The notes under the pieces: generated by a model
The model's database searches: none
Seen by the model: only the letters and a program-made list of their open reading frames with translations
What the model was told of the DNA's origin: nothing
Source: Eledone cirrhosa
Taxonomy: Eukaryota
Assembly: GCA_964016885.1 (NCBI GenBank)
Contig: OZ024742.1
Span: 329,096,001-329,160,000, forward strand
Direction of reading: 5' to 3'
Length of the DNA: 64,000 nucleotides
Part shown: positions 14,243 through 14,475 of the stretch, piece by piece
How the letters are laid out: every line of letters begins with the position of its first letter
How positions within the stretch are numbered: position 1 is the stretch's first letter
Translations under genes and position numbers: made by a program

Positions 14243-14475
14243 AACGAAGGAAATGTGGTAAGGAACCAGGTGGACCATAACGCACCAAAGTACTCAATAC
14301 TTAGGGTAGTTGACCAAAGTACTCAATACTTAGGGTAGTTGAGTGGGTAATAGGAACGAGTAGGACCCCGACGGCTGAACTCAAGCCGTTTCGACGCTAA
14401 TTCTGGACTCAATCAGTCCAGAATTAGCCGTCGAAACGGCTTGAGCTCAGCCGTCGGGGTCCTACTCGTTCCTAT
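14243..14475 (-). mobile_element. Family B PLE-type 3' terminus with snap-back hairpin and the 3' half of an HHR
   Basis: GAAA-CGGCT tgagctc AGCCG-TC^GGGGTCC on both arms. Relatives at 5335-5371, 29739-29938, 36608-36751, 40331-40523, 40595-40707 and 44768-45003. Confidence 0.75.

Follow-up and report, generated by a model that had tools for sequence, protein, structure and literature searches.

Palindromic copies of a probable Penelope-like repeat in Eledone cirrhosa turn at a shared boundary that may mark the start of the element's RNA

Family B loci and their surroundings

The window analysed here is a stretch of 64,000 nucleotides of Eledone cirrhosa DNA (contig OZ024742.1, positions 329,096,001 to 329,160,000), which is rich in TA repeats and also contains SINE-like repeats of cephalopod-like appearance. 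A BLAST comparison of the arm at 14.2 kb with the window identified six loci of one repeat family, here called family B, at 5.3, 14.4, 29.8, 36.6, 40.3-40.7 and 44.8 kb, all of them short and lacking an ORF. Positions are numbered from base 14415 (+1), the first base of the short arm at 14.4 kb, read in the GAAA-carrying direction. At this locus, a long arm (14243-14409, minus strand) spanning +1 to +139, with an internal duplication of 29 nt and a 3′ end joined to (TA)n, is separated by a 5-nt spacer at the turn (14410-14414) from a short inverted arm (14415-14475, plus strand), which spans +1 to +61 and ends at TAT adjoining (TA)n. The short arm includes GAAA, a stem III with a palindromic loop and GTC (14433-14455, plus strand; +19 to +41), that is, the 3′ half of a hammerhead-like motif, and the long arm carries an ATG at +104 (14276-14278, minus strand), 12 codons ahead of the long end, which we infer to be a candidate ORF start of the element.

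The locus at 40 kb consists of a long arm (40331-40465, minus strand; +5 to +139), a short inverted arm (40467-40526, plus strand; +2 to +61) and a second palindrome of two short arms with a reversed centre (40593-40710). The right arms at 40.46 and 40.65 kb differ at 0 of 55 positions and have two private changes in common, and the two turns must therefore be regarded as one compound locus and not as independent events. The initial annotation had described copies at 14.4, 40.46 and 40.65 kb that turn around at the same hairpin. The same turn was indeed found in all three (14409/14415, 40465/40470 and 40649/40654), but they amount to only two loci, and the detail differs at 14.4 kb, where the left arm lacks one G and the centre is a 5-nt spacer between longer arms, versus a 4-nt loop at 40.46 kb. 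The copy at 29.87 kb, which had been said to break at the hairpin, does end at the common site; it turns there, however, since its long arm (29741-29873, minus strand; +5 to +137) is followed by a 5-nt stub of the returning arm (29874-29878, plus strand; +1 to +5), read from the sequence, and then by a short arm in direct orientation (29886-29939, minus strand; +9 to +61). The remainder of the returning arm was probably lost by deletion between two TCC. The regions 40331-40710 and 29741-29939 have the same order of long arm, turn, short arm, TA run and further short arm, and the arrangement at 40 kb may reflect a local duplication or an assembly effect.

A second subfamily is represented at 44.8 kb (44765-45002) by an inverted short arm (+2 to +61), a 25-nt middle arm from +2 and a long arm from +3, and its turn, annotated initially as an equivalent hairpin of its own, lies in the same register as the others. 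Two further loci had been missed: a third subfamily at 36610-36750, in which an inverted arm (+15 to +56) is joined to a long arm from about +38 by a different junction, short of the common turn, and a fragment comprising only the 3′ end (5335-5371, plus strand; +103 to +139). The long arm at 36.6 kb starts at +38 to +42 (36648-36652), at or no more than 4 nt from the predicted cleavage site; either a cleaved RNA or a deletion that joined two similar 5-mers could account for this start.

Other inverted repeats are present in the window. Head-to-head palindromes of other families with hammerhead motifs that bear CTGANGA lie at 1091-1225, 5556-6105, 17358-17565, 30435-31077, 40756-41064 and 49595-49921, with stem II spans of 12 to 56 nt, and long palindromes without a full CTGANGA arm lie at 13691-14101, 16815-16972, 44307-44562 and 59116-59171, the one at 13.9 kb being perfectly centred and loopless. 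At 41615-41660 (minus strand), a minimal hammerhead-like motif stands alone; its stem II is short and its stem III has no extension. Among open frames, one of 218 aa (23676-24332, plus strand) encodes a sulfotransferase domain (PF00685, E 7.5e-30) and is probably an exon of a host gene. Another, of 194 aa (54327-54911, plus strand), resembles, by eye, a Penelope-type GIY-YIG endonuclease and yielded no Pfam hit at E up to 0.1.

The turn and the native sequence beyond it

The initial annotation had proposed that the hairpin at the turn is stem II of a ribozyme, which would set the truncation point through self-priming of the nascent cDNA, and it had expected GGACCCC, or a similar sequence, and CTGANGA just upstream in longer copies. 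Public runs were compared with the reference 40331-40505 at 80% likeness, comprising 21389 raw RAD reads of X17 and contigs of X1 (9567), X5 (31) and X6 (4), with three organism codes in total; the results given here concern the best-supported entries, beyond which lie a further 319 loose ends, 18 joints and 104 substitutions. Longer copies depart from the palindrome at 40466 and continue with GACTAAATTAG, which is not the 5′ arm of the hairpin. One contig each in X5 and X6 agree over 26 letters of this sequence, and the consensus matches it over the first 10 letters in X17 (1646 reads) and the first 8 in X1 (64 contigs), the remainder matching partly. Among the loose ends listed, printed to 30 letters, neither CTGANGA nor GGACCCC occurs in the 26 native bases upstream of +1, and no CUGANGA lies within 44 nt before GAAA in the longer copies, a view that covers stem II spans below 38 nt. 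An exact-pattern scan for longer family B copies gave 0 matches in metagenome contigs, viral contigs and prokaryote genomes.

Because the longer copies carry a different native upstream sequence, the 14-bp hairpin represents the inner end of the inverted duplication. Thus, the central hairpin is a product of the mirroring itself and not stem II of a ribozyme, and neither the role assigned to it in truncation nor the sequence expected upstream of it was borne out; snap-back in general, apart from this ribozyme-stem mechanism, is possible. As a control, the six CTGANGA-containing palindromes listed above were chosen from 12 other inverted repeats of the window. CTGANGA is retained in 9 of their 12 arms, 5-105 nt inside the turn, the other three comprising one with a mutated core, one that is rearranged and one (17.46 kb) that starts in stem II. 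Since most control arms pass stem II with CTGANGA, this stem does not generally set the turn.

The boundary itself is sharp. At four of the six loci an arm starts at +1 to +3; under a uniform null over 146 positions, P is about 0.0003 if the window is set to 3 nt and 0.002 if it is set to 5 nt, the +1 and +2 starts at 29.87 and 44.8 kb being taken by eye; the boundary is not reached at 36.6 and 5.3 kb. The breakpoints are thus sharply clustered and not uniform, in agreement with the initial annotation. In the reads and contigs, loose ends behind 40465 begin with 8-10 native letters and then scatter (agreement 0.50 in 1646 X17 reads and 0.47 in 64 X1 contigs), and loose ends before 40467 were found in 62 further contigs among the rows listed (agreement 0.48). 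Such scatter would be expected if numerous copies ended close to +1 and were each joined to a flank of their own. The second subfamily, which differs from the first at about seven positions within +2 to +18, breaks in the same register (100 contigs among the rows listed, agreement 0.47). In X17, its 1895 reads (agreement 0.71) provide a candidate upstream sequence, which equals that of the first subfamily at 11 of 20 positions (compared by hand; binomial P 0.01-0.03) and which, coming from one RAD run, might instead represent sequence next to a small number of deep loci.

Junctions between the arms are diverse, the mirror arm having been rebuilt with differing ones. At least six indel forms occur at 40463-40466, in 3, 19, 5, 5, 16 and 25 contigs (rows that may overlap), and an A at 40466 was found in 58 contigs, which may likewise overlap with other rows. 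Among the 15 joints listed, five run from scattered positions (40372-40416) to 40467. With a constant start in one arm and variable trimming of the other, these data point to a fixed template end and not to a fixed hairpin.

Other signals near the boundary were discarded. The fall in X17 depth at 40462 (7059 read ends of 9666) lies at an AATT (40459-40462), where, in a RAD library, a restriction cut is the most likely cause; therefore, X17 under-represents first-subfamily reads beyond the turn. An origin of the 5′ end in ribozyme cleavage was rejected as well, the boundary lying about 40 nt upstream of the GTC site, where depth does not fall and where no loose end was found among the rows listed. 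A C found after the +1 complement, at 14.4 kb as well as in the commonest junction, was considered as a possible extra base derived from a cap; in that junction, however, it is also the first base of the other arm and so is not evidence of one.

Half a hammerhead-like motif and probable membership among Penelope-like elements

The family B unit presents GAAA at +19 to +22, followed by stem III and an NUH triplet, GTC, at +39 to +41, the arrangement of a type I hammerhead. In all window copies, however, the CUGANGA core and the 5′ strand of stem I are absent; no arm carries CTGANGA with its stems, as the initial annotation had correctly noted, and the copies retain only the 3′ half of the motif. 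The type I hammerhead descriptor gave no match in family B and seven in the rest of the window, compared with 0-2 per sequence in 20 shuffles, and at E up to 5 the 150 of 421 Rfam matches listed comprised only hairpin and TA-repeat matches and no hammerhead family. The energy of stem III (-7.7 kcal/mol) is close to that of a competing hairpin around GAAA (-7.6 kcal/mol), and whole arms showed no excess folding relative to shuffles (z -0.32 to 1.21). Subfamilies whose flanking bases have diverged share an almost constant GAAA-stem III-GTC block, and the loop of this block is palindromic, as has been described for Penelope hammerheads (PMC4209133). A type II hammerhead was rejected, with no CTGANGA downstream in the arm. 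Judged from its sequence, the block is best called half a hammerhead-like motif, a putative ribozyme part.

Several features place family B close to Penelope-like elements. An inverted 5′-truncated copy with a junction palindrome is present at 14.4, 40.46, 44.8 and 36.6 kb, with a stub at 29.87 kb. The short arms extend to +61 and the long ones to between +137 and +139, where they adjoin TA repeats; these two discrete 3′ ends, +61 and +139, correspond to an optional tail on one arm, with a length of 78 nt against the usual 30-40. The +61 end (40409) joins (AT)n in 3563 reads and 74 contigs, and TA or TA-like repeats touch all six window loci, target-site duplications being unreadable in TA runs. 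An ATG followed by 11-12 open codons was found in five of six long ends, the one at 36.7 kb diverging after five codons, and the frame from the +104 ATG has an early stop in the 44.96 kb copy. In addition, the window contains a 5′-truncated Penelope-like element (10635-13113, minus strand) with reverse transcriptase (PF00078, E 6e-10) and GIY-YIG (PF01541, E 3e-5) domains and an inverted terminal repeat (pLTR) at its 5′ side, unlike that of family B. Both pLTRs of this element contain a minimal hammerhead-like motif with a core T at the A6 position.

Inverted 5′-truncated pLTRs, tails and microsatellite targets are described as standard for Penelope-like elements (PMC8557442), so that the insertion structure of family B is of an already known kind. 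The shared features with endonuclease-positive Penelope-like elements (Arkhipova et al. 2013, PMC3846280; Craig et al. 2021, PMC8557442), include a head-to-head inverted copy, a junction palindrome, one arm without the 3′ extension, solo pLTRs, TA-repeat targets, an ORF overlap of about 12 codons, a candidate one in family B (a rotifer pLTR overlaps 12 ORF codons; PMC3846280) and an Inr-like motif in the pLTR. In contrast, the extension in those elements is 30-40 nt and not 78 nt, and the family B copies lack the CUGANGA half and have no linked ORF at the window loci. Non-LTR retrozymes are likewise short non-coding Penelope-related repeats with type I hammerheads, but they are described as head-to-tail tandems with complete ribozymes (PMC7229834; bioRxiv 10.64898/2026.07.22.740005), whereas family B copies are head-to-head or single and carry half a motif, so that they do not qualify as retrozymes. 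Family B is thus very probably a new Penelope family of a known insertion kind, and its copies are likely (TA)n-flanked solo pLTRs of a Penelope-like retrotransposon.

A candidate transcript start and its alternatives

The native context at +1 is TTAGTC in the first subfamily and TTAGTT in the second, with A at +1. Both contexts match TYAGTY, a fly consensus with a background of 0.00094 per position in the window, at six of six positions, although they count as approximately one observation because the subfamilies are related; the boundary also resembles a 3′ splice site. At +28 to +32, no match to the downstream promoter element was seen by eye. TYAGTY is given as the initiator consensus of paused Drosophila promoters in PMC6483594, TTAGT is noted at the initiator position in PMC10695386, and Penelope is described as having an internal promoter within its pLTR (PMC2377424). 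From these DNA ends and a six-letter motif defined in flies, it seems reasonably probable that the fixed turn marks the 5′ start of the element's RNA. A possible second case of arms starting at a transcription start is the 30.7 kb palindrome, whose arms both begin at one base (30668 and 30837), on TCATTC, which matches the initiator consensus TCAKTY.

Alternative explanations of the shared turn were also considered. A reverse transcriptase might stall in a longer, folded RNA, at the loop of a real but imperfect stem II, after which the cDNA would fold back. The native upstream bases of the first subfamily can indeed pair imperfectly with +6 to +15 (4 bp plus 6 bp with a 3-nt bulge, by eye), leaving the turn in the loop; stem II spans of 36 and 55-56 nt in other families of the window make a long stem II possible, and one arm of the 17.46 kb palindrome of another family starts in stem II. 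Nevertheless, priming on stem II would leave the native loop and the bulged 5′ strand, neither of which is found in any window copy, the upstream bases of the second subfamily cannot pair likewise (by eye) despite a stop in the same register, and the control arms mostly pass stem II, all of which makes stalling unlikely. About as unlikely is the amplification of one or a few ancestral palindromes as a ready-made non-autonomous unit, with the shared turn reflecting common descent. The duplicated unit formed by the 40.46 and 40.65 kb palindromes, the fixed position of both outer ends and the recurrence at 29.87 kb of the A seen at 40466 in 58 contigs would agree with it, whereas the other junction forms, six at the least, and the many ends that do not turn would not, and both arms carry the letters of their own locus or subfamily, with two changes present in all four 40 kb arms and in neither arm at 14.4 kb, a pattern that arm-to-arm conversion could mimic.

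Two other possibilities appear still more remote. The resemblance to a 3′ splice site could mean that an intron splits the hammerhead, that splicing completes the ribozyme and that copies end at the acceptor. Just before +3, both subfamilies show CTAA and then 14 nt with TTAG as the last letters (by eye), and a 5′ UTR intron of Penelope is reported to be retained with its end abutting the hammerhead (PMC2377424; PMC4209133). However, +1 and +2, which would then be intronic, are present in many arms, no common upstream exon appears in the loose ends listed, and copying of a spliced template would carry on into exon 1, leaving the stop unexplained, so that splicing is improbable. Slightly less credible still is that GAAA-stem-GTC is not part of a ribozyme and that family B is a foldback repeat of non-Penelope origin in which the motif arose by chance. 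The missing CUGANGA, the competing hairpin of nearly equal energy, the listed Rfam matches without a hammerhead and the ordinary folding of the arms would be compatible with chance, whereas the near-constancy of the motif between subfamilies with diverged flanks, its Penelope-like palindromic loop and the complete hammerheads in other palindromes of the window, with more descriptor hits than in any of the shuffles, argue against it.

Returning to a transcript start as the preferred reading of the boundary, a master element would be transcribed from an initiator-like start (TT-A+1-GT-Y) inside its pLTR, the element's enzyme would nick (TA)n, and cDNA would begin at +139 or +61 and run off the 5′ end of the RNA. 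The cDNA end would then join the flank, fold back on a few of its own bases, or join a second cDNA from the other target strand, the latter two routes yielding a head-to-head palindrome. Short cDNAs from +139 or +61 to the transcript 5′ end are suggested by the initiator match, the pLTR promoter of Penelope, the ATG and the reverse transcription starts of PAc (Poseidon of Anolis carolinensis). In vitro, the PAc protein initiates reverse transcription at two internal sites early in the ORF; the DNA that it nicks is AT-rich, and the two strands are both extended (Frangieh et al. 2024, PMC11167929). Thus, two fixed starts bounding the tail, AT-rich targets, extension of both target strands and an uncleaved RNA template are common to PAc and to this reading of family B; however, the hammerhead of PAc is complete and overlaps the start codon, its starts lie about one tail of 30-40 nt apart (PMC11167929), and family B is known from sequence alone. 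Penelope of Drosophila virilis, as described by Schostak et al. (2008, PMC2377424) and Cervera and de la Pena (2014, PMC4209133), has an internal TATA-less promoter with a start inside the pLTR, as proposed for family B, but its hammerhead lies downstream of the start site and of an intron, whereas the proposed family B start is just 18 nt before GAAA.

Fold-back and joining of two cDNAs are about equally likely. The former would agree with the junction forms, most of which combine an arm extending to +1 to +3 with one that begins at +5, and with the snap-back described for R2 insertions (PMC11371274). There, the 3′ end of the cDNA uses the strand to which it belongs as template, frequently once synthesis has reached full length, although in an engineered system with another element class and target. 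Joining of two cDNAs would agree with short arms that end at +61 or within about 5 nt, with junction loops of one base or none in some cases, and with the three 44.8 kb arms, which differ from one another at +11 to +14. Junction palindromes of Penelope-like elements had earlier been ascribed to self-priming (Arkhipova et al. 2013, PMC3846280); there an antisense template is favoured, whereas the reading preferred here for family B has a sense template, copied as far as its 5′ end.

If a CUGANGA exists in the element, copies would lack it because the template likely starts downstream of it. A more tentative extension, doubtful as it stands, is that family B transcription may start inside its own hammerhead, between CUGANGA and GAAA, leaving a silent half-ribozyme at the 5′ end, whereas a read-through 3′ pLTR would hold the complete ribozyme and would cleave. 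No start site between the halves of a Penelope hammerhead was found in the titles and abstract starts searched, a selection of the literature. What hammerheads do in Penelope-like elements is described as unclear in PMC8557442; with a start between the two halves of the core, cleavage of an element at its 3′ repeat alone would be accounted for. If the proposed start is correct, the many short copies in the genome would place the start site and the two reverse transcription start sites of the element to the base, and a high-copy family with such base-sharp ends provides a large natural sample of junctions with which to decide between fold-back and two-strand priming.
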